Shown: positions 3,911-54,691, counted from the stretch's first letter. The stretch: 64,000 bases of DNA from a virus (IMGVR_UViG_2585427757_000006), one strand, 5' to 3'. Made by a program: numbers and translations. Notes: generated from the sequence alone by a model not told the origin.

Positions 3911-3979
3911 AAACAATTTGTTTTCTTATATGACTTATTATCTCAATCAACAAAAGGTAGAAAACAAATTGTTTTAGAG
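3911..3979. promoter_or_regulatory. Two copies of the AAACAA-N-TTGTTT palindrome (family A)
   Basis: aaacaatttgttttcttata 3911-3930 and gaaaacaaattgttttagag 3960-3979. The first ends 5 nt before the SD of gene 3657..3905. Confidence 0.5.
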
Positions 3980-4010
3980 TTTGTTAAAGTCAGAAGGGGT
4001 TGTGTCTATA

Positions 4011-4039
4011 TGAAAATGCCCGGCGTGTTGCCGGGCATT
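4011..4039 (-). terminator. metG intrinsic terminator
   Basis: Stem aatgcccggc / gccgggcatt (4015-4024 / 4030-4039) with loop gtgtt, followed on the minus strand by tttTc; 20 nt after the metG stop. Confidence 0.7.
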
Positions 4040-4058
4040 GCGAAGAGAGGGTGTTTAA

Positions 4059-6092
4059 TTACTTAACCTGGTGGCCAGGTTTAGCACCAGCATCCGGGCT
4101 TAACAGGAAGATATCTTTCCCCCCGGGGCCAGCAGCCATTACCATGCCTTCGGAGATACCAAAGCGCATTTTACGCGGTGCCAGGTTGGCCACCATAATG
4201 GTGTGACGCCCGATCAGTGCCTGCGGATCTGGGTAGGCAGAACGAATACCGGAGAAGACATTGCGTTTTTCACCACCGAGATCCAGCGTCAGGCGAAGCA
4301 GTTTGTCAGAACCTTCTACAAACTCTGCGTTTTCAATCAGCGCCACGCGCAGGTCAACTTTGGCGAAGTCGTCAAAGGTGATAGTTTCCTGAATCGGGTC
4401 GTCAGCCAGTGGGCCAGTTACCGGTGCGGCTGTGGCTTTCACTTCTTCTTTGGATGCTTCCACCAGTGCTTCAACCTGCTTCATATCGATGCGGTTATAC
4501 AGTGCCTTGAACGGATTCACTTTATGGCCCAGCAGCGGTTGCTGGATACCATCCCAGGTCAGTTCTGTATTCAGGAATGCTTCTGCACGTTCAGTCAGTT
4601 TCGGCAGTACCGGTTTCAGGTACGTCATCAGCACGCGGAACAGGTTAATGCCCATAGAGCAAATCGCCTGCAGATCGGCATCGCGTCCTTCCTGCTTTGC
4701 CACCACCCACGGAGCCTGTTCATCAACATAGCGGTTAGCCAGGTCAGCCAGTGCCATGATTTCACGGATAGCTTTGCCAAATTCGCGGCTTTCCCATGCT
4801 TCGCCAATCACTTCAGCGGCATCAGTAAAGGTTTTGTACAGTTGCGGGTCAGCCAGTTCGCTTGCCAGCACGCCGTCAAAACGCTTGTTGATAAAGCCTG
4901 CATTACGGGAGGCCAGGTTAACCACTTTGTTAACGATATCGGCATTCACACGCTGAACGAAATCTTCCAGGTTGAGATCGATATCATCAATGCGCGAAGA
5001 GAGTTTCGCAGTGTAGTAGTAACGCAGGCTGTCGGCGTCAAAATGATTCAGCCAGGTGCTGGCTTTAATAAAGGTGCCGCGAGACTTGGACATCTTCGCG
5101 CCGTTCACCGTCACATAGCCGTGAACAAACAGGTTGGTCGGCTTGCGGAAGTTGCTGCCTTCCAGCATGGCAGGCCAGAACAGGCTGTGGAAGTAAACGA
5201 TATCTTTGCCGATGAAGTGGTACAGCTCGGCGGTGGAGTCTTTCTTCCAGTATTCGTCGAAGCTGGTAGTGTCGCCGCGTTTGTCGCACAGATTCTTGAA
5301 GGAACCCATGTAGCCAATCGGCGCGTCCAGCCAGACGTAGAAGTATTTGCCCGGTGCGTTCGGAATTTCAAAACCGAAGTAAGGTGCGTCACGGGAGATA
5401 TCCCACTGTTGCAGGCCAGATTCAAACCACTCCTGCATTTTGTTTGCCACCTGCTCCTGCAACGCACCGCTGCGGGTCCATGCCTGCAACATTTCGCTGA
5501 AAGAAGGCAGATCAAAGAAGAAGTGTTCGGAATCACGCATTACCGGTGTAGCGCCAGAAACCACTGATTTCGGCTCGATCAGTTCCGTCGGGCTGTATGT
5601 CGCGCCGCAGACTTCACAGTTATCGCCGTATTGATCCGGCGCTTTACATTTCGGGCATGTGCCTTTTACAAAACGGTCCGGCAGGAACATGCCTTTTTCC
5701 GGGTCGTACAGCTGAGAGATGGTGCGGTTTTTAATAAAACCGTTCTCTTTCAGGCGAGTATAGATAAGCTCGGACAACTGACGGTTCTCTTCGCTGTGCG
5801 TCGAGTGATAGTTGTCATAGCTGATGTTAAAGCCTGCGAAATCAGTCTGATGTTCCTGACTCATTTCGCCAATCATCTGTTCCGGTGTGATACCAAGCTG
5901 CTGTGCTTTCAGCATGATTGGCGTACCGTGGGCATCGTCGGCACAGATGAAATTAACCTCGTGGCCGCGCATTCGCTGGTAACGAACCCAGACATCAGCC
6001 TGGATGTGCTCCAGCATATGGCCGAGGTGGATTGAGCCGTTAGCGTACGGCAGCGCGCACGTCACCAGAATTTTCTTCGCGACTTGGGTCAT
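4059..6092 (-). CDS. metG: Methionyl-tRNA synthetase (677 aa from [25 protein letters not shown])
   Basis: HIGH (HLGH) and KMSKS motifs, Zn knuckle CPKCK..CEVCG. Near-identical to E. coli MetG as recalled. The track ORF has a 43-codon upstream extension; ATG taken at 6092. Confidence 0.97.
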
Positions 6093-6249
6093 AGTAGGCA
6101 TTACTTCTTTGTAGTGAAAAGGGGCTTGATAGTAACAAAATGGCCTTATGTCTGCCATGTGATAACAGCATTTCTCATAAATGATTAAATGTCGTAGCTG
6201 GAGTACACTACAAGGCGACAATTGCGCAAATTAAAATAAAGGAGACGGG

Positions 6250-7350
6250 ATGAGCGAGTCCAAATCGCCGGATGCCCTGAGAGCAATGGTAGCCGGTACG
6301 CTGGCTAATTTTCAGCACCCAACCCTGAAACACAACCTGACTACGCTTAAAGCGTTACACCATGTTGCGTTGATGGATGACACACTGCATGTCGAACTAA
6401 TCATGCCTTTCGTGTGGAATAAGCCTTTTGAAGACCTGAAAGAGCAATGTAGTGGTGATCTGCTCCGTATCACTGGCGCAAAGGCTATTGACTGGAAGCT
6501 GTCGTACAACATTGCCACGCTTAAGCGCGTCAAAAACCAACCAGGCATTAATGGCGTTAAGAACATTATCGCCGTCAGCTCAGGCAAGGGCGGCGTGGGT
6601 AAATCCTCCACGGCGGTAAACCTGGCACTGGCGTTGGCTGCTGAAGGTGCGAAAGTTGGTATTTTGGATGCCGATATCTATGGTCCATCAATTCCAACCA
6701 TGCTGGGCGCGGAAAACCAACGTCCAACCTCACCGGACGGTACTCACATGGCACCTATCATGTCTCATGGCCTGGCAACCAACTCTATTGGTTATCTGGT
6801 CACCGACGACAATGCAATGGTGTGGCGTGGACCGATGGCCAGCAAGGCGCTGATGCAGATGTTGCAGGAAACACTGTGGCCTGATCTGGACTATCTCGTT
6901 CTCGATATGCCACCGGGCACTGGTGATATTCAATTGACGCTGGCGCAGAACATTCCTGTAACTGGTGCGGTTGTGGTAACTACGCCGCAAGACATCGCGC
7001 TGATCGATGCGAAGAAAGGCATTGTGATGTTCGAAAAAGTCGAAGTGCCGGTACTGGGTATCGTTGAAAACATGAGTGTGCATATTTGCAGTAACTGCGG
7101 TCATCACGAGCCAATTTTTGGCACCGGTGGCGCACAGAAACTGGCCGAGAAATACAACACGCAGTTGTTAGGCCAAATGCCACTTCATATCTCTCTTCGT
7201 GAAGATCTGGATAACGGAACACCAACCGTTATTAGTCGTCCAGATAGTGAATTTACGGCTATTTATCGTGACCTCGCAGATCGCGTTGCTGCCCAAATGT
7301 ATTGGCAAGGTGAAGTAATACCTGGCGAAATCGCATTCCGCGCAGTGTGA
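6250..7350 (+). CDS. apbC: Fe-S cluster carrier ATPase ApbC/Mrp
   Basis: [11 protein letters not shown]-loop and the CSNCGHH motif. Collinear with E. coli Mrp as recalled; divergent from metG as in E. coli. Confidence 0.95.
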
Positions 7351-7356
7351 TAAAAA

Positions 7357-7486
7357 GGTGGTGCTTTTGCCGTTACGCACCCCCCCGTCAGTAGCTGAAC
7401 AGGAGGGACAGCTGATAGAAACAGAAGCCACTGGAGCACCTCAAAAACACCATCATACACTAAATCAGTAAGTTGGCAGCATCACC
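7357..7486 (-). mobile_element. IS1 left-end fragment (~130 bp, truncated)
   Basis: Reverse complement of IS1 IRL ggtgatgctgccaacttactgat (7486-7464) plus the insA start at 7431. ORF 7168..7431 begins [16 protein letters not shown], the InsA N-terminus, then runs into antisense apbC. Confidence 0.85.
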
Positions 7487-7597
7487 GAGCGCCAGCGGCG
7501 AACATATGAGCTTCGGAAATACTAGACATTCTTAACTCCGTTGTTTTCTAGTTGTGGTTATTTTCACAAATAAGAAAAGATAGAAAACAATTTATTT

Positions 7598-7618
7598 AAG
7601 GCCACAACTTATGGCCTT
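7598..7618. terminator. Hairpin downstream of gene 7649..8029
   Basis: aaggcca caactta tggcctt with A/T-rich flanks. Orientation and function uncertain. Confidence 0.4.
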
Positions 7619-7648
7619 TATTTATTCATGCCGAAGGATTTGTAGCGT

Positions 7649-8029
7649 CTAATTGCCGGATAAAATGGGGTGAGGTGCTTGCCAGTAGGCTCCACCGTTC
7701 CATGTGAACCCCATGCGAATAAGAGTGTTTATTGCGGCTTTGGTAGACTCCGATTCGACACTGGCTTTACGAAACTCTTGAACCTCTTTCGCCAACTTGT
7801 ATGTAATTGTGCAGGGGACGATTGCAGCCCAGCCTTTCTCATGACTGTTAATGACCATCTGGATGTGACCATCCAGAATAGGTTGATTAGGCATGTTATT
7901 GAAAATGTCTGCCTGTTTTTGAATGTGAAGAAAAAGCCTTGCCAGCGCCATTTGCTCACTACGAGACAAGGGATTATCAAGAGGGCTTTTTGCAAAAGCT
8001 GCTATACGCTGTGCATCAATGCCAAACAT
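7649..8029 (-). CDS. Hypothetical protein (126 aa)
   Basis: Long ORF whose start codon shares one nt with the stop of the upstream gene (8029). No motif recognised. Confidence 0.6.
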   Translation of the reverse strand: MFGIDAQRIAAFAKSPLDNPLSRSEQMALARLFLHIQKQADIFNNMPNQPILDGHIQMVINSHEKGWAAIVPCTITYKLAKEVQEFRKASVESESTKAAINTLIRMGFTWNGGAYWQAPHPILSGN

Positions 8030-8733
8030 CAGCGCACCTCACCATCTTTATGGCTGGAGTTAACTTCCGTCATTAAATGTCTGACGTAATCGACAAGAGA
8101 GCCGCCTGGTGGAATCTGGCATTCCTCAACTAACTGGAAGTAGATATCCGCTGCATTACGTGTATTGCTACCCGCGCATATTCTTTCTTCCCGAAGTGCA
8201 TGAAGCTCGTTGATCAAACGGTCACACTCTCCGTTACGCTGATCCACAACGGCCTCAAGCTCTGCGACGCGTTCACCTGGCGTCTTACCTTCTTTGCGTT
8301 GGATGGTAACGACGAAATCGCCAATTGCAGGGACGTTGTAATCCAGCTCAAGGTAGTTTTTGGCACCGCTGCGGACGAACTCACCCGCGAACATGGTGGC
8401 GAACATCGCAGAGGCCACTTCTCCGTTGAAAAGTGACTCCAGATCTAACGGAGTCCCGGCAGCAAGAGCCTCCTTTGCTGTATCCATTGCATCCATGAAC
8501 CGATCAAACTCACTAGCGCGCTTTTCCAGGTCTTTCCATTGCTCGCTCCAACGTTTGGCAACGAAGTCTATGAATGTTTTCGCGGATTCATCAAAATTCC
8601 CCTCAAACTTAACGATGCCTTTATCAATAATGATCTGGCCTACCGCATCCTCTGCATAACCTTTCAATGTAAACTTGAAAGGAAAATCGGAATGGCCTGT
8701 GACGTTAAAATGCTCTAACTGGAGGTTGCTCAT
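8029..8733 (-). CDS. Hypothetical protein (234 aa)
   Basis: Starts in the conserved leader (plus catgtgttttt at 8731). No motif recognised. Confidence 0.65.
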   Translation of the reverse strand: MSNLQLEHFNVTGHSDFPFKFTLKGYAEDAVGQIIIDKGIVKFEGNFDESAKTFIDFVAKRWSEQWKDLEKRASEFDRFMDAMDTAKEALAAGTPLDLESLFNGEVASAMFATMFAGEFVRSGAKNYLELDYNVPAIGDFVVTIQRKEGKTPGERVAELEAVVDQRNGECDRLINELHALREERICAGSNTRNAADIYFQLVEECQIPPGGSLVDYVRHLMTEVNSSHKDGEVR

Positions 8734-8794
8734 GTGTTTTTCTCTTATCGTTTAGTAACTACATTCTTACATAAATTAAGTAAGCATTTACCTA

Positions 8795-10480
8795 TCATTT
8801 AACGCGTTTGAAAACGTATACGCTGACTGTGATCCCTGTGTCTTCAAACTCGTTGGTAAACGACTTCCCTCTGGCATAAACGTAATTATCCATCGTCATC
8901 CAGTCCAGTATTGGCGCAGTGCCCGGCAATACTGCTACAAGACGCCCGCCGACTTTCAGATGCCCCAGCGCAGCCAGCGTGTGCTCTCTATGACGACCAA
9001 GCGAGTACGGCGGGTTCATAACGATTTTGTCGAACTGATAACCTGCGTTGTCCTCAGACCACTTTATGAAGTCGCAGCAAATCGTGTTCGTATACCCTTT
9101 TCCACGCAGGATATCAGCGAAGAGAGGTGCGATTTCTATGCAGGTAACATCTTCCAGATCGGCGTCAATATAGGCCAGAAGATCCCCACGTCCGGCTTGA
9201 GGCTCCAACAGCTTCTCACCAGGCTTCAATTCAGTGGCTCTTGCAACGTACTCAGCAATCAAGCGTGGGGTAGGGTAGAACTGGTGTGATTTTGTATCCG
9301 GTATTAAACCGGTAGCCACAATCGTATTTAGCGTATGGCCGATGTCATACGGGAACTGCCAGTGCTTTTTCTCCTGCACGCCGCCAATGAAGCTCAGTGT
9401 GCGCTCAAGCTCTTCCACCTGCGACTTCTGGAGAGCTGAATCAGAGAAGTACCATACACCTTTGTCTTTGCTCAATCGCCCGTCACGAAGCGCAGTGCGA
9501 ACCGGCACGGAGATCGTCTTCTGGATTAAACCGAACTGCTTTGGTGCCCGTGTTTTTGGCGCAGTTCGGCATGGCGCGGGGATTGCAGCAGGCATACTGT
9601 AAGCCAGCACCTCATTCAACTTCCAGGCCACGTCAGGATGTATTTCAAAGTGAACGTTGCCGTTCTTGAACATCTTCACGCGCATCAGATTTCCATCGAC
9701 GTTCATCCAGTCACCGGTCTGGCAGTCGTTTGCCCGATACGCAGCTGATAGCACCTCAGCAGTGCGGTTGATGGTAATAAATTCTTTGTGCGCGAAGAAA
9801 TGAAGCAAGACACGCAGATCGTCGATGTAGTCCTCTTTGCGATAGTTCACGCTAACGCTGTCCCGCCAGAAATCAGAAATGCAGTCAGCGATTATCAGCC
9901 GCTCGCTGAAACCATTTGTCTTATTTGTCTTGTGCACAGGACTCAGCGCCTTAAACAAGCCATACACGCGCTCAGAGAGATATTTGTGCCTGTCATTCAG
10001 CAAATTAAGCATCGTGGGTATGACCGTTTCTGCTTTGAACTCCGGTACACCAACGAACTCTTTAACCTTCATCTGGTAGCCGGTTCTGTCAGTTTTGATG
10101 ACTTCCTGTTTGCCCTCTATAAACTGCTCGCGCCACTCATCTCGACGGGAAGCTGGCATGATCAGCAAAACGTTAGTCATGTCCGTGACCTTCCTCCAGT
10201 ACTCGGCCCAAATATTCTGTTTCACCCATTCCAGATCGACTTTATCCAACCAACCTCGATTTAAACGCGAGCGATCTTCATCTGGTCGATGGTTTAGTCT
10301 CAGCAGGCGATTAATCATGTTGTGGCGTTCGTCGCCATAAACGAAGTCGTGTACCTGATACATGAAGGCGATCTCTTTCTCGCACTCGGCCACAATTTCG
10401 TGGATAACGTTCATTTCCTGACGATAATCGATAGCAGTGTTTGAGCTGGCATCGTCGATGATGGAAAGGGCTGTATTCAT
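8795..10480 (-). CDS. N6-adenine DNA methyltransferase with a large N-terminal domain of unknown function (561 aa)
   Basis: C-terminal motif I LEPQAGRGDL and motif IV VMNPPYS. The first ~370 aa carry no recognised motif. Confidence 0.8.
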   Translation of the reverse strand: MNTALSIIDDASSNTAIDYRQEMNVIHEIVAECEKEIAFMYQVHDFVYGDERHNMINRLLRLNHRPDEDRSRLNRGWLDKVDLEWVKQNIWAEYWRKVTDMTNVLLIMPASRRDEWREQFIEGKQEVIKTDRTGYQMKVKEFVGVPEFKAETVIPTMLNLLNDRHKYLSERVYGLFKALSPVHKTNKTNGFSERLIIADCISDFWRDSVSVNYRKEDYIDDLRVLLHFFAHKEFITINRTAEVLSAAYRANDCQTGDWMNVDGNLMRVKMFKNGNVHFEIHPDVAWKLNEVLAYSMPAAIPAPCRTAPKTRAPKQFGLIQKTISVPVRTALRDGRLSKDKGVWYFSDSALQKSQVEELERTLSFIGGVQEKKHWQFPYDIGHTLNTIVATGLIPDTKSHQFYPTPRLIAEYVARATELKPGEKLLEPQAGRGDLLAYIDADLEDVTCIEIAPLFADILRGKGYTNTICCDFIKWSEDNAGYQFDKIVMNPPYSLGRHREHTLAALGHLKVGGRLVAVLPGTAPILDWMTMDNYVYARGKSFTNEFEDTGITVSVYVFKRVK

Positions 10481-10582
10481 AATTACACCATTAAATAATT
10501 TGTTTTCTGATTGGTGTAATTATCGCAAACTTGAAAAGGCATAAAAGCTGCATTCATAGGCGTTACAGCAGATTTAAGGCGT

Positions 10583-10604
10583 AAAAATGGGGGCTGTCGC
10601 CCCC
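10583..10604 (-). terminator. Intrinsic terminator after gene 10622..11188
   Basis: gggggc tgtc gccccc (10589-10604), followed on the minus strand by atttttac. Confidence 0.6.
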
Positions 10605-10621
10605 TGTCGACTGGTGCTGTA

Positions 10622-11188
10622 TTAGAGTGCGTATTGCGTTTTGTGCGGCTGCTTATTCAAGTCATGGCGATGCGTGAGCTCCCGCATCATGTCTTCAAGG
10701 CGACTCTTTGTGTCGTCGAGCTGGTCGGCCATTGCACCTAAAAGCTGGCGAACGGCCATCGGATCGTCGCTGTTTAGTGATGGCATTTTAGAACCTGCTT
10801 TAGAAGACATAAGGTTGATTGCAGACATCAACATCGTTAGAGAGGATTTAAGCCCGGCAATTTCACGATCTTTGCTGGCAATAATCGTCTCACTTTTGTT
10901 ACCGTCATCAGTTTCTTGAGTCTCGCTCACCATATCCAAAGTCGCTTGCAACTTATCAGCTCTCTCTTTTTCAGCAAGGTAATGAACACCGAAATGGTGT
11001 GCCAAAGCTACAATCTGAGTTGGCTCTTCAAAGGTGGAATTAAAATTAAGTATTGTAAACAGTCTCTCAAATATGGAAACGTCTTCTATTCCTCGAAGAA
11101 TGGCTAACATTTTGACCAGTTCATTAGCATCCATTTCTTCGAATAAGGCGTTTTGTTCATCAGCTATTGCTTTGCATTTCTCGCACAT
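10622..11188 (-). CDS. Hypothetical protein (188 aa)
   Basis: Conserved leader aaggaaaacacATG and a family A palindrome upstream (11205-11225). Confidence 0.6.
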   Translation of the reverse strand: MCEKCKAIADEQNALFEEMDANELVKMLAILRGIEDVSIFERLFTILNFNSTFEEPTQIVALAHHFGVHYLAEKERADKLQATLDMVSETQETDDGNKSETIIASKDREIAGLKSSLTMLMSAINLMSSKAGSKMPSLNSDDPMAVRQLLGAMADQLDDTKSRLEDMMRELTHRHDLNKQPHKTQYAL

Positions 11189-11204
11189 GTGTTTTCCTTA
11201 ATGC

Positions 11205-11225
11205 TTAAACAAGTTGTTTTCTTAT
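11205..11225. promoter_or_regulatory. Representative family A palindrome
   Basis: ttaaacaagttgttttcttat, about 17 nt upstream of the ATG at 11188. Confidence 0.5.
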
Positions 11226-11305
11226 TGGTTTTATTGTGATGTGGCATAAAAGGGGAGCAAGCTAAACGTAAAGGTGCAAACTCTCTATTTCGGTCAACGA
11301 AACAC

Positions 11306-11325
11306 AAGGGCCATTTGGCCCTTGT
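11306..11325 (-). terminator. Hairpin after the 52-aa ORF
   Basis: caagggcc attt ggcccttg, 3 nt after the TAA at 11328-11330. Confidence 0.5.
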
Positions 11326-11327
11326 CA

Positions 11328-11486
11328 TTAACACTTTGCTTTACGAACTAACGGATAAGCGAAGTAGATCGCCAAACCAATGAGGACGCCATCAGAAATG
11401 ACAGACATCATCTTTCCCGTAAAATCCACCAACACCGCCATCACCAGAAGAGCAATGACGATCACAAGCCGGAATCTCTCAAGCAT
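11328..11486 (-). CDS. Small membrane protein (52 aa), not in the ORF track
   Basis: Hand translation gives MLERFRLVIVIALLVMAVLVDFTGKMMSVISDGVLIGLAIYFAYPLVRKAKC. The ATG overlaps the TerB-like stop as TAATG at 11484-11488. Confidence 0.45.
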   Translation of the reverse strand: MLERFRLVIVIALLVMAVLVDFTGKMMSVISDGVLIGLAIYFAYPLVRKAKC

Positions 11487-11911
11487 TAGAGATAAGCATC
11501 CAGTGACAACTGAAGCGCCTGGGCGATCTTTTTCAGTGCCTGCTCTTCTTGTTCACCAATGCCGTCCTGATCGGCAATATCAAGGCACAGACACAGAACA
11601 TCGACCGCCTCTGGAGTACCCGCAATATCAGACAGCTCACGAATAGCCTGTGCATTAGCAGAACGAGGGGACGCTTCGTAACGAGCACGGATATTGGCGC
11701 TCATTTGGGCAATTTCACCAGCAAACGGAGAAAACGCAGGCAGAGCTGCAATTGTCTTCTCAAGAATGGCAATTTCTTTTGCGTCACATGTGCCGTCGGC
11801 ATAGGAGATCATGTACGCGCCCCACACGGTGGCCTCAACCGCATCACGGTTCTCCATTTTTTTGACTTCGATAACTGCTTTACGAGTTTTCTTTTTGAAG
11901 AAACCTAACAT
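11486..11911 (-). CDS. TerB-like domain protein (141 aa)
   Basis: Helical pattern DG.CDAKEIAILEK...LCLCLDIADQDGIGEQEEQALKKIA resembles the TerB (tellurite-resistance) fold with paired acidic motifs. Recollection-based. Confidence 0.5.
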   Translation of the reverse strand: MLGFFKKKTRKAVIEVKKMENRDAVEATVWGAYMISYADGTCDAKEIAILEKTIAALPAFSPFAGEIAQMSANIRARYEASPRSANAQAIRELSDIAGTPEAVDVLCLCLDIADQDGIGEQEEQALKKIAQALQLSLDAYL

Positions 11912-12004
11912 GTGTTTTCCTTTTGTTATTTGTCAAAACAAGTTGTTTTCTAGTTAAATAAATTGCTTACGCAAAGACGGTCAATGCATATGTACTAACA
12001 ACCG

Positions 12005-12193
12005 TCAGAAATAACCAAGTACCGAACCGACTGGAAAAATAAAAATCCCAACTACACGAGCCAAGGTCATGCCAGCCTGAAACTGGAGATCGCCAGAGCA
12101 AACAAGTTTTATAATGTTCGATACCCAACCGGCGGCCATGAGGGCAAGAATTGCCAGCCAAATTTTTCCAAAGTGATTTGAAAACCAGTTCAT
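12005..12193 (-). CDS. Small membrane protein (62 aa)
   Basis: Two hydrophobic segments (IWLAILALMAAGWV, VVGIFIFPVGSVLGYF). Confidence 0.5.
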   Translation of the reverse strand: MNWFSNHFGKIWLAILALMAAGWVSNIIKLVCSGDLQFQAGMTLARVVGIFIFPVGSVLGYF

Positions 12194-12202
12194 ACAACCG
12201 CC

Positions 12203-12697: not shown

Positions 12698-12845
12698 GTG
12701 GACTCCATCCAGTGTCAGAAAGAGTTGCGGCTGGCGATTGCCAGCCGCTTTTCTCGTTCCATCCTGGAACTGTGTCTTACCGACACATTGTCATCCTGAC
12801 GCCGATAAGATACATGATTTAAAATGATAGGTAAACACTTACTTA

Positions 12846-13497: not shown

Positions 13498-13534
13498 TTA
13501 ATAATTATTAAAATAAACAAATTACTTCCCAGAA

Positions 13535-15028: not shown

Positions 15029-15211
15029 CTTCTTTCTCGATAGGTAAGTAAATACCTATTTTTGCATTTGATTTTATGTCTGGCAATCAAATAAAACGCG
15101 CCAGAAATGCAAACGAGAAGCTCTCTGGCGCGTTTTTGTGGTGCTGGGTATGTGATTGACTTACCCAGTACTATAAAGCTCTCTATGGGCTTTATTTTAA
15201 GTAGGGGAACG

Positions 15212-22124: not shown

Positions 22125-22198
22125 GTGTTTTTCCTTTTTCTTTTTTGGTGCGTTTAAACAAGTTGTTATCTTATGTGTTTAAACAAGGCTTACAAATC

Positions 22199-46660: not shown

Positions 46661-47830
46661 TCACGTCTTAATAGTTTCTGCTACGTCGGCTAATATCGCT
46701 TCTAGTCGTTCTCCCTCTTCAGGTCTGAAGTAAAGAATGTTGGGGTTAAACCCGTAAAAGACAGTAACGTCAAGGTCTGGAAGATACTCCTTCCTGCCGA
46801 CCAAATCGGATGGCTTGTTTTTGTTGTTAAACAATGAAGTTGCCCGGCTGCCACACGTCAGCACATAGGTCGGACGCACCAGATTGATCTCTTCACGCAT
46901 AAAGTCGGTGAACTGGCCGATCTCGTCTTTGGTGTAGTCTTTTTCTTTGTCTTTAACCTTCTTGCAAACACCTGTGACATAGAGATCGCCCATGCGTAAA
47001 TCTCCAGCCGTCAATAGCTTGGCCTTAAAGTCGTCGTATCCGTTCTCCATAAAGTAACCGGTTCGAGCATCATTGCCGTTCGCATTGTCCAGAATGATCA
47101 TGATTTTCGGCTTAATACCAATGCTGGGGCGGATTAGTTCATCACCTAAGCCCATTTCAGCCGCCATCCGCGTCATGAGTACGTTAATTTCAGCCGAACG
47201 TTTGGGGTTCATCTCAAACGGACGTGAGGCTTTAACTGCGTCTATGACAAGGTTTCCCATCAATTCAGCCTGGTCGCGTAGGCGCTCTGGATCAGTTGCT
47301 GGCAGACTGCCTGGCTCGATGGATGCAAACGCCCCTACTTTTTGCAGCGATTCGCGCACTCGACTATTACAGGCACGTTTCTCGACAGCTTCTTCGAATT
47401 GCGCCAGTGACTCGAATTTGCCGCCAACTTTTTCTCGCGCTCTCATGATGGCTTGGCAGCCATTCTCAGAACACCCCTTCACAGCAGAGAAGGGCGCATA
47501 CAGCACCTGGCTGCCATCTTCAAGCGTGCGGATCTCGATTCGGTTAGATGACACGTTAACGTCTGGTGGCAATACGCGAATGCCATAGGTCAGCGCATCT
47601 TTAACCAGCCCCTGGTGTTTATCTTCGCCAAGAATAGTGAGAGCAGCAGCGAAAAACTCTGCGGGATAATGAGTTTTCAACCACATAGATTGATAACTGA
47701 TTAAGGAGTAAGCAACAGAGTGTGATTTGTTGAAGGCATACGCGCCGGATTTCTCAAACATATTCCAGATTTCTTCGGCTCGTTCGTGCGTCAGGCCATT
47801 GCTCTCTTCGACAACACCGGTAATTTTCAT
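46661..47830 (-). CDS. dnaE: DNA polymerase III alpha (DnaE-type) C-terminal fragment fused to a UDG-like domain (389 aa)
   Basis: YAFNKSHSVAYSLISYQSMWLKTHYPAEF is the conserved DnaE finger motif. The last ~170 aa (IMIILDNANGNDARTG...LTCGSRA...FYGFNPN) resemble a family-4 uracil-DNA-glycosylase fold. Confidence 0.8.
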   Translation of the reverse strand: MKITGVVEESNGLTHERAEEIWNMFEKSGAYAFNKSHSVAYSLISYQSMWLKTHYPAEFFAAALTILGEDKHQGLVKDALTYGIRVLPPDVNVSSNRIEIRTLEDGSQVLYAPFSAVKGCSENGCQAIMRAREKVGGKFESLAQFEEAVEKRACNSRVRESLQKVGAFASIEPGSLPATDPERLRDQAELMGNLVIDAVKASRPFEMNPKRSAEINVLMTRMAAEMGLGDELIRPSIGIKPKIMIILDNANGNDARTGYFMENGYDDFKAKLLTAGDLRMGDLYVTGVCKKVKDKEKDYTKDEIGQFTDFMREEINLVRPTYVLTCGSRATSLFNNKNKPSDLVGRKEYLPDLDVTVFYGFNPNILYFRPEEGERLEAILADVAETIKT

Positions 47831-48561
47831 GCAGTCACCTCATCAATCTTCACGAACTCATCCCCATTGGAGGCCAGCCAGTTCCGTTGGCGCTCCCAGC
47901 TCCATATCTCTTCACGCATTTCACTATGCAGGCGAATGTGGGCGTCTTCTGGAAGTGCTACAAGATTCCCAGGGGCGTTATCTATCGTATCGCGGTTAAT
48001 ATGGTGGACATGTTCATCGTCACGTAGCTCCCGACCGAGACGTTCTTTCGCTATCAATCGATGAACGTATTCGTATTGCGAAACGCCATTGTTACCAACC
48101 AGCTGCATCATGTAGCCGTTGGTTTTTACGATGATGCCACCTTTGTAGTTGTTCGCTTCTTCTCCGATCTTTCCGCGTTTGGCAGCCGCCAGCTTTTCCT
48201 TCGTCTCCGCGCGGATTGTTCTGCCGGTTAGCTTTTTCGAAACGGTGGCCACTCGCTCATCGATATCAGCACGCAGACCGGCATTCCACGAGGTTTTCCC
48301 ATACATAGGGTTGCCAGTGCCAGTCCGGGCTTCGGAGAGACGCTTCATACGTTCGTCATTATTTTTGTTTTTGCCACGATTCCAGGCTGGGGTAGCGGAG
48401 ATCCGCGCGCTTCCGCGCCTGATCCCCCATTTGGCTAATAAGCGGTCAATATTTGCCTTGCTGCAACCAGCTTCGGCGGCAATGTCTTCTTTTCTCATCA
48501 GGTCAACCATGTAACGCTGACGTAACCATTCTTCTGTGATTTTGTACTTCGTACTCGGCAT
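47827..48561 (-). CDS. Free-standing HNH homing endonuclease (244 aa)
   Basis: C-terminal HNH EYVHRLI...HVHHINRDTIDNAPGNLVAL..H, with NUMOD-like repeats (PAWNRGK, KTSWNAGL). ATGA overlap with the downstream polymerase fragment. Confidence 0.85.
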   Translation of the reverse strand: MPSTKYKITEEWLRQRYMVDLMRKEDIAAEAGCSKANIDRLLAKWGIRRGSARISATPAWNRGKNKNNDERMKRLSEARTGTGNPMYGKTSWNAGLRADIDERVATVSKKLTGRTIRAETKEKLAAAKRGKIGEEANNYKGGIIVKTNGYMMQLVGNNGVSQYEYVHRLIAKERLGRELRDDEHVHHINRDTIDNAPGNLVALPEDAHIRLHSEMREEIWSWERQRNWLASNGDEFVKIDEVTA

Positions 48562-48609
48562 TTCTAAGACTCACTAAACAAATTGTTTTCTTATCTTATA
48601 AATTAATTC

Positions 48610-50973
48610 TCAAATATCGAAGCTCGTTATGTCGGCATTTATTGCCATTGCTTCGGCATAAGTGCGACGCTCACCATCAGCACAAAGTAGGCGTGCTGCT
48701 TTATGGATTTTTCTCGTAGAACCATCATCCAGTGACACTGTCACCCAGCCTTCCTCCGCTCGCTTAATGAAGTCGCCGCCAATGGATTTCATTTTCTCCA
48801 TATCTTTTTTCCCGATCGCTTTCCTGACCGAGTCTGCTTCCGCCATTGAGAACCCCGCCAAGATTCGCGTAGCAGCCATGATCTGTTCCTGATAAATCAG
48901 AACTCCGTTTGTGTCGCGAGAGATGTCGTCCAGCATTGGGTGTAAGGAATGTGGGGCCATGAAGCCTTTGGCCACGGACACATAATCGTCCAACATGCCG
49001 GATTGAATCGGGCCAGGTCGGAAGAGCGCAGTTGTAGCGACGACCGTTTTAAAGCTCATTGGCTCAATTCCACCACCTAAATCTTTAAGCAGCTTGCGCA
49101 TTGGGCCTGATTCAAGCTGGAATACGCCCTGTGTATACCCTGCAGCAAAACCATCCAGCACCTTGCGATCTTCAAGAGAAATGGCATCAAGATTGATATC
49201 TTCACCTGTGTTCTCTTTTATGTAGCGTTTTGCACTATCGAGCAAATCGAGAGTTGCCAGGCCAAGCACGTCCAGCTTAATTAGGCCCATAGCCTCGCAG
49301 TAACGCTTGTCAAATGCGATACAACGCGCGTCACCACGGCGTTCAACCGGTGTACGTTCTGTCAGAGGAACACCTGCTACGATCATCCCTGCCGCATGTC
49401 TACCAAAGCCACGCATAAGGCTTTGTAACTTGCAGGCTGCATTGAATGCATCAGGATATTTTGTTGCGTATTTGTCGAGACTTGCCAGTTGTTCGCGCAG
49501 CTCTTCCAATGGAAGGCTATCATCCTCGACGTTCTTCAGTTCTTTTGATACCGCCATATCTGCGGACTCCACACCATAAATACGAGCGGTGTCACGTAGT
49601 GCAGAGGCTGCGCCCAGGTAGGTGAAGTTCGGAATGCCTGCAACGTAATCTTCGCCGTAGCGTTCATTCAGATACTCGATCACCTCATGGCGACGTGCCT
49701 GGCTGAAGTCCAAGTCCGCATCCGGCAAGTCGAGACGCTCAGGGTTGATGAAACGCTCAAACAGAAGACCGTGACGGATTGGGTCGACGTTGGTTATGCC
49801 TATGCACCACGCCACCAGAGAACCGGCAGAGGAACCACGACCAGGCCCAACGGGAATGCCAGTTTCACGACTATGATTCATCAGATCGCGCACCATCAGG
49901 AAGTAACCACAGAATCCCAGGCGAGTCAGCGTGTCCATTTCGTACTTTAGCCGCTCAACATAAACCCTGTTCTCAGAAGCAGGTGGTGTGTATCCAAACT
50001 CTTTTGTGGTAAGACGTTTACGCAGCCCTGCAACAGCCAGTTTCATCAGCGTTGCAGGTTCGTCGTCTGCCATCTTGGGCAGTGCTGGTGGCAATTCATG
50101 CCAGCGCCATGTGCAGGCATCGATAATGGAGTCCTGCGTTGTTGAGGCCATTGCAGCTGTTACCGGCACATCCATGCGAACGGAGAAGGCTTTAAGCGCC
50201 TCAAGGAGATGGCGACGACCATTGATGGCGTTATCTCGCTGGTGGGGGATACGCAGACGATGCGGCTGGTCGATTTTTATGTTGTTCGTAACCATGTGCG
50301 CAATGTCTTTAATGTCTGCATCGTCGATCGATTCGTAATAAGCGGGATAGAACGCCACTGGCTCTATTTTCAATGCGCTGGCGACTTTCATCGCCCGGAC
50401 GTTAATCTGGTCGTAGAATGGGGTAGGGTGCGGATAAACCACACTATAGAAGTTGTCTTTTCCACCCGCTGTAATCAGTGTGCTTATGATTTTTGCAAAA
50501 TCGTTGCGTTGGAACACGCTACCGATGTCGGAAGTAAGCAGGATGATGTTGCCTTTGGCATATGTAGAAACCAACTGTTCGAGCGAGAGACGCGGCACAA
50601 AGTAGAACTGTTCTCGTGTGTTGGCCACCGTCATTAGTTCGCAGATGTCGCGATATCCTTGCTCATTTTTAATTAGAGCGGTAAACGAGTAGTTACGTCC
50701 CCGCTCTAATGATTCCATACATCTCATAGATTCTTTAGCAAGTTTAGCCCGGTGCTCGTATGTGGGATCATCAACAATGTTTAGTTTCACACCACAAATA
50801 ACCGCCATGTCGTCACCAGCGGCACGTTGTAGTGGAATAACGCTCGCAATATTCATGCTATCTGCTGAAATTACAGCGGTGTAGCCAGCTTCTCTGGCAA
50901 TCTTCACCGCGTTTTCAGCTTTTAGAGCCGACTCCCCAAGTGAGAAGTCAGTTCGAACCATCAGTGCCTTCAT
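48610..50973 (-). CDS. dnaE: DNA polymerase III alpha (DnaE-type) N-terminal fragment: PHP, palm, thumb (787 aa)
   Basis: GPGRGSSAGSLVAW, DLPDADLDF (catalytic Asp pair) and LFRPGP. Ends 45 aa after ..FIKRAEEG with non-DnaE-like sequence. Confidence 0.9.
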   Translation of the reverse strand: MKALMVRTDFSLGESALKAENAVKIAREAGYTAVISADSMNIASVIPLQRAAGDDMAVICGVKLNIVDDPTYEHRAKLAKESMRCMESLERGRNYSFTALIKNEQGYRDICELMTVANTREQFYFVPRLSLEQLVSTYAKGNIILLTSDIGSVFQRNDFAKIISTLITAGGKDNFYSVVYPHPTPFYDQINVRAMKVASALKIEPVAFYPAYYESIDDADIKDIAHMVTNNIKIDQPHRLRIPHQRDNAINGRRHLLEALKAFSVRMDVPVTAAMASTTQDSIIDACTWRWHELPPALPKMADDEPATLMKLAVAGLRKRLTTKEFGYTPPASENRVYVERLKYEMDTLTRLGFCGYFLMVRDLMNHSRETGIPVGPGRGSSAGSLVAWCIGITNVDPIRHGLLFERFINPERLDLPDADLDFSQARRHEVIEYLNERYGEDYVAGIPNFTYLGAASALRDTARIYGVESADMAVSKELKNVEDDSLPLEELREQLASLDKYATKYPDAFNAACKLQSLMRGFGRHAAGMIVAGVPLTERTPVERRGDARCIAFDKRYCEAMGLIKLDVLGLATLDLLDSAKRYIKENTGEDINLDAISLEDRKVLDGFAAGYTQGVFQLESGPMRKLLKDLGGGIEPMSFKTVVATTALFRPGPIQSGMLDDYVSVAKGFMAPHSLHPMLDDISRDTNGVLIYQEQIMAATRILAGFSMAEADSVRKAIGKKDMEKMKSIGGDFIKRAEEGWVTVSLDDGSTRKIHKAARLLCADGERRTYAEAMAINADITSFDI

Positions 50974-51151: not shown

Positions 51152-51153
51152 GA

Positions 51154-52389
51154 TTAACCAAATATTTTTTGAACAACTTCACGAGCCGCTTGTGCAGAAG
51201 CTGAAGGGAGTTTGTTAATGAAAGAACGCTCAATACCTGTCACAAAGTCGCCTCGCATCATTCCAATCTTGGCCGACAACAAAAGTTCACGAGGGCCAAT
51301 TGGCTGACTAATAAGGTGTTCTTCGTATCCATCGCGAACGATACCGGCAAACTTAACCATCTTTTCAGCGTATTCATCCACGATGCCTGCATTTGTCAAC
51401 ATGTTGATCTCTGCGTCTTTGCTCATGTATTTCACATTCGAAACGATGCCAAAACGCGAAAAGTTCGCGGCGTTCTGGATGTTTGTACCCTGGTACAAGC
51501 CGGTTTCATCACCAGATCCGTTCGTGTTGCCAGTGCCAATGAAAGCAAACCGTTCATGCGGAGTAATGCGACGCCATTCTGGAGTTGCCTCTTTGATGAC
51601 CAACGCTTCACCTTCCAGCACTGGCTGATACACGCCAAGAATTTGTGGAAACGCAAAGTCGTATTCATCCGCGAGGTAAACCCAGCCATGCTTCATTGCG
51701 AGCGCAAGCAAGCCAGGTTCGAAATACGTAGAGCCATCACGCGCCAGAATTTGCCCCGTAACATGTGCCTCTTCCATTGATGCTGTATGTTGGGCACGGA
51801 TCAACGGACGATTGAGCAAAGCACATAGCTGTGTAGGCAATGACGATTTGCCTGTTCCTGCATGACCCCACAAATAGCCAGGTATGCCAAGTTCAAGCAT
51901 CATGAAAATATCTTTGATCAGTTCGAAGTCGCCATATACGTAGCCTTTCTTCACTTCGGGAACGAACTCTGGATACGGCGTATTGACGTTGACGCTAACC
52001 ATGAGCGGCGTCCCACGTTTTGTTCCGAGTTCTTCCACCGTTACGTTTAGCAGTTCGTGAGCTGCGACCAGATCTGTCTTGTACTCAACTGTGCCTGTGT
52101 AGCCAGGGCTACTGGTCAAGCCAGAAGATTTGGCCATTTCGCTTTTTTGCTCGGCACGTTTAGCTTGAATTGCATCAAGTGCCTTTTTCGATAGCGTTGG
52201 TTCATCTGGAAACTGCGTTGTGTACATTTTCAGTACGGTGTCAGGATCGGCATCTTTTACTGACTCAGGAATGCCCTCGCAATTACCATTGGCTACATGG
52301 GACTTAAAATAGTGAAATGATTTGCCGCACCACTTGCAAACAAGGTAATCAGAAGGATTTTTTTCATTTTGCAGTGCAGTAGTCGTCAT
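51154..52389 (-). CDS. CobS/MoxR-like AAA+ ATPase (411 aa)
   Basis: Walker A GHAGTGKSSL, Walker B VYLADEYD, and an N-terminal CKWCGK..H..C zinc-finger-like motif. Confidence 0.8.
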   Translation of the reverse strand: MTTTALQNEKNPSDYLVCKWCGKSFHYFKSHVANGNCEGIPESVKDADPDTVLKMYTTQFPDEPTLSKKALDAIQAKRAEQKSEMAKSSGLTSSPGYTGTVEYKTDLVAAHELLNVTVEELGTKRGTPLMVSVNVNTPYPEFVPEVKKGYVYGDFELIKDIFMMLELGIPGYLWGHAGTGKSSLPTQLCALLNRPLIRAQHTASMEEAHVTGQILARDGSTYFEPGLLALAMKHGWVYLADEYDFAFPQILGVYQPVLEGEALVIKEATPEWRRITPHERFAFIGTGNTNGSGDETGLYQGTNIQNAANFSRFGIVSNVKYMSKDAEINMLTNAGIVDEYAEKMVKFAGIVRDGYEEHLISQPIGPRELLLSAKIGMMRGDFVTGIERSFINKLPSASAQAAREVVQKIFG

Positions 52390-52484
52390 GCGTTTTTCCT
52401 TTGTTCTCTAATGAGCGTTCAACTTCTTATATAAATATATCATCATCTATCGTAAGTAGTTACTTATCGTTAAGGCTGTTTTGT

Positions 52485-54593
52485 TCACTTTAAAATGATA
52501 CGAGATAGTTCAGTAACTACAGATGAACCAAGACTATCAACGCTCGTTACCAGGGCATGATTTGAGTAAAATCTCTCCGGTGCGTCAGTCATGATGCCAA
52601 TTGCCATCAAATCAATATCAGTCTGCGTTTCAATTTGCTTCGCAACTGAACGCAAATGAGCGTCAAAACCTCTCCCAACAGCCCACGGCGCGCCATCACT
52701 CAGAACAAGCATGATCTTCCTGTCCTCCATGCGACCGGAAAATAACGATGCAAGGCTGGCTATGCTTTCACCATCCACGTTATTAAGAAGTGGGAATGTG
52801 TAGCCTACGCACCCCATACGTGAGCGAACTTCGCGAGAATTTACCTTTTCATTCCAATTTTTGATGATAGGTAGCATTAAAGATTCAAAGCGAGAGAACT
52901 CATACTTGACAGCCTTAAGTTCTCCTGCCGCCATATGACTACCAAATGTAGTGAAGCCGGTGATAATGTTGGGAACATTTATTCGATCAAGGGCATCGGC
53001 GATGGTATATGCACTTGCAAGAGCCAGTTTAATCGTTATACCACTCATTGAACCTGATAAATCAATCACTTGTTGAACACAGGCGTTAACGGCTTTAGAT
53101 TCTTCTTTTTTACGAAACACGCGAGCATCATTCATTGCTAATCTGTAGATACTAGAACCATGAATGCGCCCCCGACGCTGGCCCGGTATAAACTGAACTC
53201 TGTTTCTGCTTGCTATTGCTCGCTCCAGGTCTTTTGCCAGCGTCGACGAAACACCTGACGAAAGATGCTTTTCAATATATTTGTCGAAGAGCTGGTTGCC
53301 TTCAGGAACGATGCGATAGCGGCTGATTGGATATCCTCCCAAATCAATATCGGAGAATGTTTTAATAAGCCGTTTGATATGGGCTTCTGCCTGATCAATG
53401 GAGCCGATGAAGTCGTATGAGCGATTGTATGGCCTGTATTCGCTTTTCGAGCTTTCTGTTAACTCGCTTTTAATCGTTTCGGATAGCGCATCTTCTGTCA
53501 TGCCTCCGACTTCATCTTCCATGCTATCCAACTCCTCTAAAGCCTCTTCCAGACTCATTTTTGACGGAGTTGGGATATCTGAAGAGCCGTCTTCTGTCGT
53601 TTTTCTTTTTTCGTGGTCAGCGGTTAATGATTCTGACGCCGCGTTATCAGAAGCATCAGAATCTGATACCTCTTTATCATTTTCTGTATCATCGAATATT
53701 GTTTCTGATGATTCAGAATTATCTGAATCATCACTGTCGTTATTATCATGTTTGTGCTTACTATGTGATTCTGATTTGATAGATTTGTGGTTATCTAACA
53801 CTGAGGGTGTCTCATGATCTTCGTTGTCTTCACTGTTTTCTCCAGAGGCATCCGTCTGGTCAGCGTCTGAAGGATCGGAAGTTTTTCCCGGAGCTGACTC
53901 CTTACCTTTGCTTTCACTTTCAGTGTCTTTGAGGATCTTAGCTATGGTCGCAGCCACCTTTACACAATCCTCGGTGCAAGACATGTTACGCACGGCCACA
54001 TCGATACCATGTTCTTTTAATAATGAAATTGGTTTCTCAATGACAGGCCAATATTCATCCATGAAATCTACGAACGGTGCTTGGCCATCCCAGGCTCTTA
54101 CAACCGGACAGAGAAAGAAGTTTAGAAAAAGCGCGCGCTGATCTTTGCCACAATAAGCAATAGCCTCTGAAGCCTTTGGTTTAAAGACTTTTTCGATTAT
54201 AAGGCGCTGAGTTGCCATCAGATTACGTCTTGTTCCGTTAAAGACCTGACCCATTTTTCGCTCGATGAACACGTCTTCTAAGGCATTCCATAGCGACCAG
54301 GAAGGAACGCGTCCTTTTTCTCTCATTTTGTTGGACACACGAATATCGGTAAACAAAATGTGAGCAACCTCATGATCGAGAAATCCGCGCACAGCATTCA
54401 TCAATGCCGGTGTTGCGTTATCCGGGATTGATGGGATGTTTACGAGAATTGGCTCTCCATCATCGTTATAGCGTACATAAGCGTCGTCCCCTCGTTCTGC
54501 AACAGGGATGTTTTTACCTGAAAGGAGAGCGACTACTCGTTTTACACTGTCACGGAAGTCCTGAACCTCTTTGATGGAACGTTTTTTAGACAT
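52485..54593 (-). CDS. CobT-like protein with a C-terminal vWA domain and a long acidic linker (702 aa)
   Basis: MIDAS motif VIDLSGSMSG. Central ~120 aa is D/E/S-rich (DSDDSDNSESSETIFDDTENDKEVSDSDASD). Confidence 0.8.
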   Translation of the reverse strand: MSKKRSIKEVQDFRDSVKRVVALLSGKNIPVAERGDDAYVRYNDDGEPILVNIPSIPDNATPALMNAVRGFLDHEVAHILFTDIRVSNKMREKGRVPSWSLWNALEDVFIERKMGQVFNGTRRNLMATQRLIIEKVFKPKASEAIAYCGKDQRALFLNFFLCPVVRAWDGQAPFVDFMDEYWPVIEKPISLLKEHGIDVAVRNMSCTEDCVKVAATIAKILKDTESESKGKESAPGKTSDPSDADQTDASGENSEDNEDHETPSVLDNHKSIKSESHSKHKHDNNDSDDSDNSESSETIFDDTENDKEVSDSDASDNAASESLTADHEKRKTTEDGSSDIPTPSKMSLEEALEELDSMEDEVGGMTEDALSETIKSELTESSKSEYRPYNRSYDFIGSIDQAEAHIKRLIKTFSDIDLGGYPISRYRIVPEGNQLFDKYIEKHLSSGVSSTLAKDLERAIASRNRVQFIPGQRRGRIHGSSIYRLAMNDARVFRKKEESKAVNACVQQVIDLSGSMSGITIKLALASAYTIADALDRINVPNIITGFTTFGSHMAAGELKAVKYEFSRFESLMLPIIKNWNEKVNSREVRSRMGCVGYTFPLLNNVDGESIASLASLFSGRMEDRKIMLVLSDGAPWAVGRGFDAHLRSVAKQIETQTDIDLMAIGIMTDAPERFYSNHALVTSVDSLGSSVVTELSRIILK

Positions 54594-54691
54594 GGCTAAT
54601 CCTTTGTTATGAAAACAAATTATTTACTAGTGTGTTTAATGTAGCACTGCGCGAACAGGGAACTAAGCCATTCGCGCAGGGAGAAGAGGGG

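Follow-up and report, generated by a model that had tools for sequence, protein, structure and literature searches.

The stretch of DNA analysed here, IMGVR_UViG_2585427757_000006 (64,000 nucleotides [nt]; "the window"), belongs to an Escherichia coli element that megablast places in the SSU5 group of phage-plasmids, and our subject is a short palindrome, motif A, that recurs ahead of its operons. Its megablast identity is 97-99% with Escherichia phages CMS-2020a and Cyrano, ~78% with Salmonella phage SSU5, and ~77% with Klebsiella relatives. The complete E. coli plasmid pM160133_p3 (NZ_CP022167.1; 113,428 bp) matches it at 99.4% identity: window positions 1888-30383 equal plasmid positions 84965-113428 (in two blocks that overlap slightly where they meet), and 30384-64000 equal 1-33762, except for ~1.2 kb (38288-39501) without a match. 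Most window genes are encoded on the minus strand; they include genes for nucleotide metabolism and recombination, a type I restriction system, tRNAs, and a ligase, as well as a dnaE gene split by an HNH insert and an integrase gene accompanied by a helix-turn-helix (HTH) gene. The resistance gene dfrA51 is annotated on the same replicon.

Allowing up to two mismatches, AAAACAANTTGTTTT is matched 10 times in the window (at 2595, 3910, 3961, 7584, 10492, 11206, 11935, 22155, 48575, and 54612), compared with 0.90 matches expected; none of 100 dinucleotide-preserving shuffles reached 10 (the largest count was 3). This confirms the recurrent motif that an earlier reading of this DNA, the original prediction, had described. 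A position weight matrix (PWM) built from the copies added the half site at 7533-7549 and no comparable match elsewhere in the window. The window holds 11 of the element's ~20 copies, all of them between annotated genes (Table 1). On NZ_CP022167.1, where annotated features make up 87.6% of the DNA, 18 of 20 motif A matches fall in the 12.4% that is intergenic (binomial P = 7e-15).

The copies first read by eye do form one family, placed ahead of the first genes of operons, and most of that list stands: 3911-3930, 3960-3979, 7541-7550 (half), 7582-7597, 10494-10510, 11205-11225, 11933-11953, 22153-22174, 48575-48594, and 54611-54630 all belong to it. By contrast, 13511-13530 and 22178-22188 drop out, having a TTGTTTA-like right half only and scoring below the PWM cut-off, and a conserved copy at 2595-2609 had been overlooked. 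The copy at 48575 indeed precedes the HNH gene within the split polymerase gene, with the HNH gene (47827-48561) on one side of it and the upstream dnaE fragment (48610-50973) on the other. All copies of positional class I (defined below) share one orientation relative to the downstream minus-strand gene and end 4 to 30 nt ahead of its start codon.

Table 1. Motif A sites, associated promoter elements, family B palindromes, and candidate binding proteins (window coordinates unless stated otherwise)
Feature	Position	Strand	Sequence	Remarks
A copy, reverse (class II-type) orientation	2595..2609	-	TAAACAACTTATTTT (on minus strand)	In ~1.5 kb without annotated genes; orthologues SSU5 90739, Klebsiella pJN2-26 25868, Cyrano 94604
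Class I operator	3910..3926	-	AGAAAACAAATTGTTTA	Ends 4 nt ahead of first ATG of DUF1380 gene (3657-3905); SSU5 orthologue 88369
Putative extended -10, DUF1380 promoter	3937..3945	-	TGAGATAAT	Hexamer at -18..-13 from motif's first A
Class II operator	3959..3975	-	AAAACAATTTGTTTTCT	18 nt upstream of -10; centre 51 bp from that of 3910 copy; pair recurs in SSU5 (88318/88369) and Cyrano (93113/93164)
Class I half site, left arm only	7533..7549	-	AGAAAACAACGGAGTTA	Downstream gene truncated by IS1 remnant
Putative extended -10	7560..7568	-	TGTGAAAAT	
Class II operator	7582..7598	-	TAAATAAATTGTTTTCT	Directly after GC hairpin 7598-7618; 18 nt upstream of -10
Class I operator	10492..10508	-	AGAAAACAAATTATTTA	11 nt ahead of DUF4942 methylase-like gene (8795-10480); orthologues SSU5 82467, Kp 19223, koz 89101
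Putative extended -10	10519..10527	-	TGCGATAAT	
Class I operator	11206..11222	-	AGAAAACAACTTGTTTA	17 nt ahead of gene 10622-11188; -10 candidate CACAAT 11233-11238
Class I operator	11935..11951	-	AGAAAACAACTTGTTTT	23 nt ahead of TciA/TerB-like gene (11486-11911)
Class I-oriented copy	22155..22171	-	AGATAACAACTTGTTTA	Between nrdA and nrdB, 30 nt ahead of nrdB start; orthologues SSU5 70218, Cyrano 70325
Class I operator	48575..48591	-	AGAAAACAATTTGTTTA	13 nt ahead of HNH endonuclease gene within dnaE; -10 candidate ATTAAT 48602-48607
Class I operator	54612..54628	-	AGTAAATAATTTGTTTT	18 nt ahead of CobT-like gene (52485-54593)
Extended -10, CobT-like promoter	54638..54646	-	TGCTACATT	
Family B copies	8777-8794, 12828-12845, 15041-15058, 24593-24610, 29277-29294, 33111-33128, 55108-55125, 60442-60459			
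ParA partner (CYRAN_29)	NZ_CP022167.1 40077-40430			Outside window; encoded right after ParA-type partition ATPase
CI-like HTH repressor gene (CYRAN_45)	55155..55541	+		Rival binder; own promoter with family B, without A
Winged-helix-like protein, 71 aa (CYRAN_37)	60907..61122	-		Secondary candidate binder

The site matrix, pooled from 75 oriented sites of four genomes, gives the consensus A (80%) G (89%) AAAACAA N TTGTTT A (69%). The full site is an asymmetric 17-base near-palindrome, AGAAAACAA-N-TTGTTTA: AG extends the left arm, and the last base is A where symmetry would need T. Arm positions are 92 to 100% conserved, while the centre is free (A/C/G/T, 19/18/21/17 in the 75 sites), which argues that the palindrome as such is under selection. 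Arm bases that deviate from perfect symmetry are compensated on the opposite arm in 3 of 93 cases and uncompensated in 90; leader RNAs carrying the site have predicted folding energies (-0.7 to -2.9 kcal/mol; z, -0.55 to +0.58) that do not improve on those of shuffled sequences; and a Rfam search of the window found three tRNAs only, with no match at the motif. On these three grounds we rejected an RNA hairpin or known RNA family. Because the centre is free, arm changes are uncompensated, and no hairpin is predicted, the two half sites appear to be read by a dimeric DNA-binding protein rather than as an RNA structure, as the original prediction had supposed. Its description of a regulon-like set that fits no described regulator also agrees with what we found. 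The motif does not fit the LexA (SOS) box, CTGT-N8-ACAG, and the P1 C1 consensus, ATTGCTCTAATAAATTT, shows no resemblance to the site matrix.

Two positional classes are distinguished by their distance from a -10-like hexamer (called at a score of ≥3 bits). In class I, the hexamer starts at -18 or -19 from the motif's first A in 17 of 36 sites, with no other offset enriched; it reads GATAAT, GAAAAT, TATTAT, or TACATT, is mostly preceded by TGn, and leaves the motif's first A a fixed 12 nt after the -10. Class II copies are the reverse complement, TAAACAA...TTGTTTTCT, and end 18 nt upstream of the same type of -10 (the hexamer starts at +33 in 7 of 16 sites, again with no other offset enriched); they often abut a GC hairpin, supplying its T-rich tail. 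The classes occur together at the DUF1380 promoter (3961 and 3910) and at the promoter of the truncated gene at ~7520 (7584 and 7541). TGn is present at 3937, 7560, 10519, and 54638 and in most orthologues, and is absent at 11233, 11962, 22182, and 48602. A consensus promoter scan of 2400-12400, which requires a -35 element, gave no promoter at any A site.

From this spacing we infer that transcription starts 6 to 8 nt after the hexamer; AAnAAG would then be the first transcribed bases, and the palindrome would lie at about +6 to +21. The original prediction had instead fused a -10, TATAAG or ATAAGA, to the operator. We rejected this because these hexamers lack the conserved final T, because TGnGATAAT lies upstream at a fixed offset, and because of the layout in a syntenic relative, Moellerella wisconsensis plasmid pW18-2-b. 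There, "-10 + N6 + AATAAG" is retained and the palindrome is lost, so that ATAAG is a promoter or start feature separable from the operator; TATAAG is more likely the transcription start region than a -10.

Motif A copies number 20 in the E. coli plasmid, 21 in SSU5, 15 in Klebsiella pJN2-26, and 20 in the Klebsiella pneumoniae subsp. ozaenae plasmid CP027615.1. Motif and layout recur at orthologous genes of SSU5, pJN2-26, CP027615.1, and Cyrano, including parA, dnaB, the cobT-like gene, nrdB, the DUF4942 gene, and the small terminase gene. At the CobT-like promoter, alignment with SSU5 and Kp shows the TGnTAnnnT-plus-motif layout to be kept, and upstream of dnaB in seven lineages the motif and the ribosome-binding-site block alone are conserved, the 25 nt ahead of the motif having diverged. 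The Moellerella plasmid has four matches, mostly in coding DNA.

Expression in a lysogen was taken from the per-gene RNA sequencing (RNA-seq) table for LF82/Cyrano (PMC9928086, S1 table), in which the median background is 9.8. First genes behind A sites read at or near this level: CYRAN_1 (small terminase) 7.1, CYRAN_47 (cobT-like) 7.8, CYRAN_70 (nrdB) 12.9, CYRAN_85 7.0, CYRAN_87 7.1, CYRAN_93 6.3, and CYRAN_101 7.5; dnaB reads 21 and the parA operon 50 to 89 (PMC9928086). That motif-controlled operons are off in the lysogen is consistent with repression. In macrophages, CYRAN_46, beside the CI-type switch, climbs to log2 10.8, and the cobT-like gene just behind its A site remains at 5.9 (PMC9928086); this contrast fits a second layer of control but is not proof of one.

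We see about an even chance that motif A is a repressor operator through which a single protein of the element silences viral genes in the plasmid state. Because the promoters rely on a -10, usually with TGn, host σ70 RNA polymerase should need no help at them, and would use these -35-less promoters unaided. A dimer at +6 to +21 of a class I promoter would then block open-complex formation or promoter escape, as at lac O1, and a dimer at a class II site, about -45 to -31 and upstream of the -10, would block polymerase. Since two window promoters carry both classes (51 bp apart in the DUF1380 pair), cooperative binding or looping is possible, and a pair of dimers could reinforce the block. In this way one element protein would keep ~20 operons silent in the plasmid-prophage state, among them operons for DNA metabolism and replication, those of the accessory cassettes and of the HNH gene, and the first part of the late operon.

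The sequence comparisons point to the 119-aa ParA partner as the binder, a proposal to which we give a little less than an even chance. The lysogen expresses the partner at 89, or 9x background (PMC9928086). The order ParA, then small partner, occurs in every lineage, and an A-type site lies 35 to 50 nt upstream of parA in every lineage examined. The protein begins with a conserved MGDLAK and combines an arginine-rich tail with a predicted strand-helix-helix core in which I.SRTMS.EDE ... FTRSDVIRAAI is invariant among homologues 48-50% identical overall, features that weakly suggest a ParG/omega-type ribbon-helix-helix centromere binder with a basic N-terminal tail. The parA promoter has an intact A site in all nine distinct sampled lineages with the SRTMS strand and in the near-identical Cyrano; these include E. 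coli, SSU5, pJN2-26, the K. ozaenae plasmid, L143, L144, L145, and L159, the last of which has no other A site in 20 kb. Altered strands go with a degenerate right arm at parA in Moellerella (SRTVS; AAAACAATATATTTT) and in Raoultella L148 (SRSLS; AAAACAATTTATTAT), neither of which has dispersed A copies, and a metagenomic homologue, 32% identical and with a different strand, goes with a different palindrome. The parA-promoter site of E. coli, SSU5, and pJN2-26 is the variant TTGTTTC, and K. ozaenae-type lineages have a few extra TTGTT-like half sites upstream of parA.

The site may have begun as the autoregulatory operator of the partition operon, which the Escherichia, Salmonella, and Klebsiella lineages would have copied onto lytic promoters. 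With a slightly weaker variant at parA, the partner could build up until the consensus sites were filled and then shut off its own synthesis. Lytic release might come, we speculate, through titration by replicating genomes or through an antirepressor; with repression tied to the ratio of protein to genome copies, runaway replication upon induction or infection would titrate the protein and open the lytic programme. It is a tentative and rather doubtful extension of these ideas that the partition system doubles as a lysogeny lock, the ParA partner both segregating the plasmid-prophage and silencing replication, accessory, and late genes. Such a lock would work beside a separate CI-type switch using a second palindrome, family B.

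Several points weigh against repression by the ParA partner. The RNA-seq data do not discriminate, because lytic genes, behind a motif or not, are nearly all silent in the lysogen, and the parA operon has an A site yet is expressed at 50 to 89; autoregulation may be the explanation. About half of class I sites, such as that of nrdB at 22155, have no good -10 at the standard offset, and the failure of a -35-requiring scanner to find promoters at A sites leaves room for dependence on an activator. Ribbon-helix-helix centromere binders as a rule recognise arrays of short repeats rather than a single palindrome of 15 to 17 bp, and the region upstream of parA in E. coli, SSU5, and pJN2-26 contains a single palindrome and no short-repeat array. 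Finally, the covariation of strand and operator amounts to two independent changes only, in lineages where all other proteins have diverged too.

Other candidates were tried and rejected. CYRAN_117 (92 aa, ribbon-helix-helix-like, and expressed in the lysogen) varies at its presumed DNA-facing residues (Y/H/S and A/Q/K), nor is the motif-like stretch at its start codon conserved; CYRAN_123, a winged-helix protein encoded beside the late promoter, has the same recognition helix in motif-less Moellerella; and CYRAN_43, at 700x background in the lysogen, is not conserved in NZ_CP022167.1, SSU5, or Klebsiella. A Pfam search of twenty further open reading frames (ORFs) gave HTH and FljA matches only, and PHROGs returned "unknown function" for the binder candidates.

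The search for an HTH repressor proposed with the original prediction does turn one up in the window, the CI-like protein CYRAN_45, but its promoter bears family B rather than A. Family B (tgATAGGTAAGTaCTTACCTATca) is a dispersed palindrome found just upstream of genes, with 8 copies in the window (Table 1), 12 in SSU5, and >14 in pJN2-26; in the Moellerella and Raoultella relatives the main dispersed motif is a variant of it. Since a perfect core, GGTAAGCACTTACC (55110-55123), sits one base after the TAATAT -10 of the HTH gene, family B is probably the operator of the CI-type repressor, although SSU5 has its 12 copies without that repressor. If CYRAN_45 were nevertheless the binder of motif A, it would be a classical immunity repressor acting at dispersed operators, as C1 of P1 does. 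It is annotated as a putative repressor, matches HTH_19 and a PHROG "transcriptional regulator," stands in a divergent, switch-like layout beside the integrase gene, and reads 96 (10x background) in lysogen RNA-seq (PMC9928086). We nonetheless think this improbable: the switch region contains no A motif, SSU5 lacks CYRAN_45 but retains 21 A sites, and the protein is 57% identical in pJN2-26, 47% in the K. ozaenae plasmid, and 43% in Moellerella, while motif A is identical in the first two. Nor are we much inclined to see in motif A a positive element, a docking site on the DNA just past the start for a lytic activator or an RNA polymerase modifier, such as a Q-like antiterminator loaded at every operon of this terminator-rich genome, with AATAAG at +1 to +6 as a σ-dependent pause element. 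Promoters without a -35 that a consensus scanner misses would suit such an element, as would the GC hairpins that flank many genes and the late leader, where two A sites and then a terminator-like hairpin precede the small terminase gene. Activators, however, seldom act from +13, class II copies lie upstream and inverted, TGn-extended -10 promoters are as a rule independent of activation, and the parA site is in use during lysogeny, a state in which lytic regulators are off. The protein that would fit, CYRAN_37, is silent in the lysogen (PMC9928086). Its presence and absence match those of A sites in five genomes (present in four A-rich ones, absent from Moellerella), but it was not detected beside the ligase gene in L143 and L144, which have A sites at parA and dnaB.

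Three further explanations seem to us less probable still. Class I copies would be transcribed, 4 to 30 nt ahead of start codons, and might, as part of the mRNA leader, be the linear target of a translational repressor a few bases ahead of the ribosome-binding site, either RegA-like or the full-length FljA homologue that the element encodes; FljA-type repressors block translation of fliC mRNA (PMC2652032), and CAAGTTGT, the centre of the motif, occurs in the Salmonella fliC leader. We hold this to be distinctly unlikely, since a dyad with independent half sites is unexpected of a linear RNA site, folding predictions give no stable hairpin, class II copies are placed upstream of the promoter, and the E. 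coli fliC leader, on which FljA-type repressors act (PMC2652032), lacks the sequence. The FljA homologue, moreover, is 33% identical in the K. ozaenae plasmid, whose motif is unchanged; this and the E. coli leader led us to reject it as the binder. Recognition by a host DNA-binding protein of Enterobacteriaceae, exploited by the element, would account for the same motif in Escherichia, Salmonella, and Klebsiella elements and for its loss in the relative from Moellerella (Morganellaceae), but Raoultella (L148) and L159 are also enterobacterial and lack dispersed copies. No enterobacterial regulator with this consensus is known to us; those that come closest, the CusR box (AAAATGACAA-NN-TTGTCATTTT) and the KdgR box (AAACA-N-TGTTT), are both differently spaced, and this explanation too strikes us as a distinctly poor one. 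Least probable of all, the palindrome would have no dedicated binder and would be a passenger of a recombining promoter-terminator cassette like the T4-type PeSL cassettes. Modules of ~50 bp (GCCTTTT-N9-TGnGATAAT-aacaccaacaAG-motif) do recur ahead of small accessory genes, and class II copies adjoin terminator hairpins; yet the palindrome is kept at orthologous promoters where the rest of the module has diverged, Moellerella promoters have the module without the palindrome, and near-invariant arms around a free centre speak for selection acting on the palindrome.

Read as the dispersed operator regulon of a phage-plasmid, motif A has parallels in several known systems and is a sequence member of none of them (C1, KorB, omega/ParG, or SopB); a full-text literature search found no paper on motif A or on SSU5-type promoters or operators. 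Phage P1, also a phage-plasmid, has at least 17 Op sites with an asymmetric 17-bp consensus bound by C1, and shares with our element a short site at many operons over a ~100-kb genome, overlap with promoters, and global silencing; unlike the Op site, the A site is a near-palindrome of unrelated sequence with two positional classes, and the element's own CI-like repressor seems to go with family B. Closest to the reading we prefer, repression by the ParA partner, is KorB of IncP plasmids RK2/RP4, a ParB and global repressor whose OB site, the 13-bp palindrome TTTAGCSGCTAAA, has 12 copies: there too a partition protein's odd-centred palindrome is spread over the promoters of a replicon. KorB, however, has a ParB-family HTH and acts at a distance, whereas our candidate would be a small ribbon-helix-helix partner of ParA that targets phage lytic promoters. 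The operator structure of KorA has been described (PMC2665229).

The ribbon-helix-helix centromere binders omega (pSM19035) and ParG (TP228) double as repressors, and omega regulates other promoters too. Like them, the ParA partner is a small protein with a flexible basic N-terminal tail, encoded after a Walker-type ParA, and its presumed site lies in the promoter of the partition operon; they, in contrast, bind arrays of 4- to 7-bp repeats at few promoters, compared with a single palindrome of 15 to 17 bp at ~20 promoters here, and the fold of our candidate is weakly supported. The partition sites of N15, according to what Ravin and Lane reportedly found, are dispersed over phage gene regions and affect late expression. 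If the partition link holds, both phage-plasmids would have single inverted-repeat partition sites spread through the genome rather than one array; N15 differs in using a ParB-type SopB and in having sites that are not systematically at promoter position +13, and its separate inverted-repeat centromere sites number four (PMC7205306), versus ~20 here. As for position, an operator just downstream of the start recalls lac O1: LacI comes from an unrelated protein family and serves a single operon, but paired A sites 51 bp apart likewise suggest cooperativity. lac O1 is centred at +11, and auxiliary operators permit looping.

Clinical Escherichia, Klebsiella, Salmonella, and Enterobacter commonly contain SSU5-type phage-plasmids, which carry resistance genes, of which dfrA51 is one; the ParA-partner gene is found on 797 PLSDB plasmids. 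For these elements motif A offers a map of transcription units and a handle on the silencing of ~100 kb of lytic genes. If the ParA partner does bind it, partition and lysogeny control would be fused. Within dnaE, a mobile gene for an HNH endonuclease has come under the control signal of the element itself. An exact-pattern scan of viral contigs found the motif mainly on ~100-kb SSU5-like contigs, with scattered single matches besides.

Some A-site promoters have further features of interest. Directly upstream of the cobT-like promoter (54647-54679) lies an inverted repeat, CTGCGCGAA-N15-TTCGCGCAG, whose SSU5 counterpart, CTGTACGAACAG-N9-CTGTTCGTACAG, has changed in both arms together. The double-operator promoter 7541/7584 reads into a 13-codon open frame (7356-7530) ended by the IS1 remnant, and the GC hairpin beside it is flagged as a plus-strand terminator-like site. 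Behind the same promoter, Cyrano has an Eae-like gene and SSU5 an HD-phosphohydrolase gene, so the promoter cassette is reused for varied cargo. The late-operon leader (NZ_CP022167.1 73124-73210, outside the window) contains two A sites 25 bp apart, then a GC hairpin (AGAGCGC-N6-GCGCTCT) and GTGTGTTTTA, ahead of the small terminase gene; by analogy with lambda pR'-tR', which it recalls, this arrangement suggests antitermination control of late genes. The regions ahead of the small terminase gene and of one further gene (L137 [Moellerella] 42136-42300; L138 25549-25682) share TAAGAAATTATATAAATACTATGGGA, which includes TATAAATA, the T4 late-promoter consensus.

The first 1,887 nt of the window (54% G+C, with two long plus-strand ORFs) are missing at the same place in the reference plasmid and in Cyrano and are probably an inserted mobile element; a query of 1-8000, which includes them, matched at least 5000 records of the plasmid collection, and the best among the matches listed start at 1888. 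Next to them, ~1 kb (~1888-2930) without an annotated gene, within a ~1.5-kb gap of the reference plasmid, is rich in A and C (caggcataacaaaacaactaaataacacaaatgcc...) and starts beside the conserved class II-type A site.

FljA is a post-transcriptional repressor of phase-1 flagellin, and its homologue on this element (NZ_CP022167.1 78912-79436; L003 28912-29436; outside the window) is full length (Pfam Flag1_repress, E = 1.5e-84) and may render lysogens non-motile. The match to the centre of motif A in the Salmonella fliC leader lies within L152 2690-2760; the E. coli leader has none. CYRAN_81, annotated as a 44-codon ORF (window ~13710-13838, minus strand), falls within the 580 bp that separate the methylase-side genes from rnhA and has no Rfam match. 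It is 91-98% conserved in SSU5 and Klebsiella, reads 117 in the lysogen RNA-seq data (12x background), and could be a small RNA instead of a protein.

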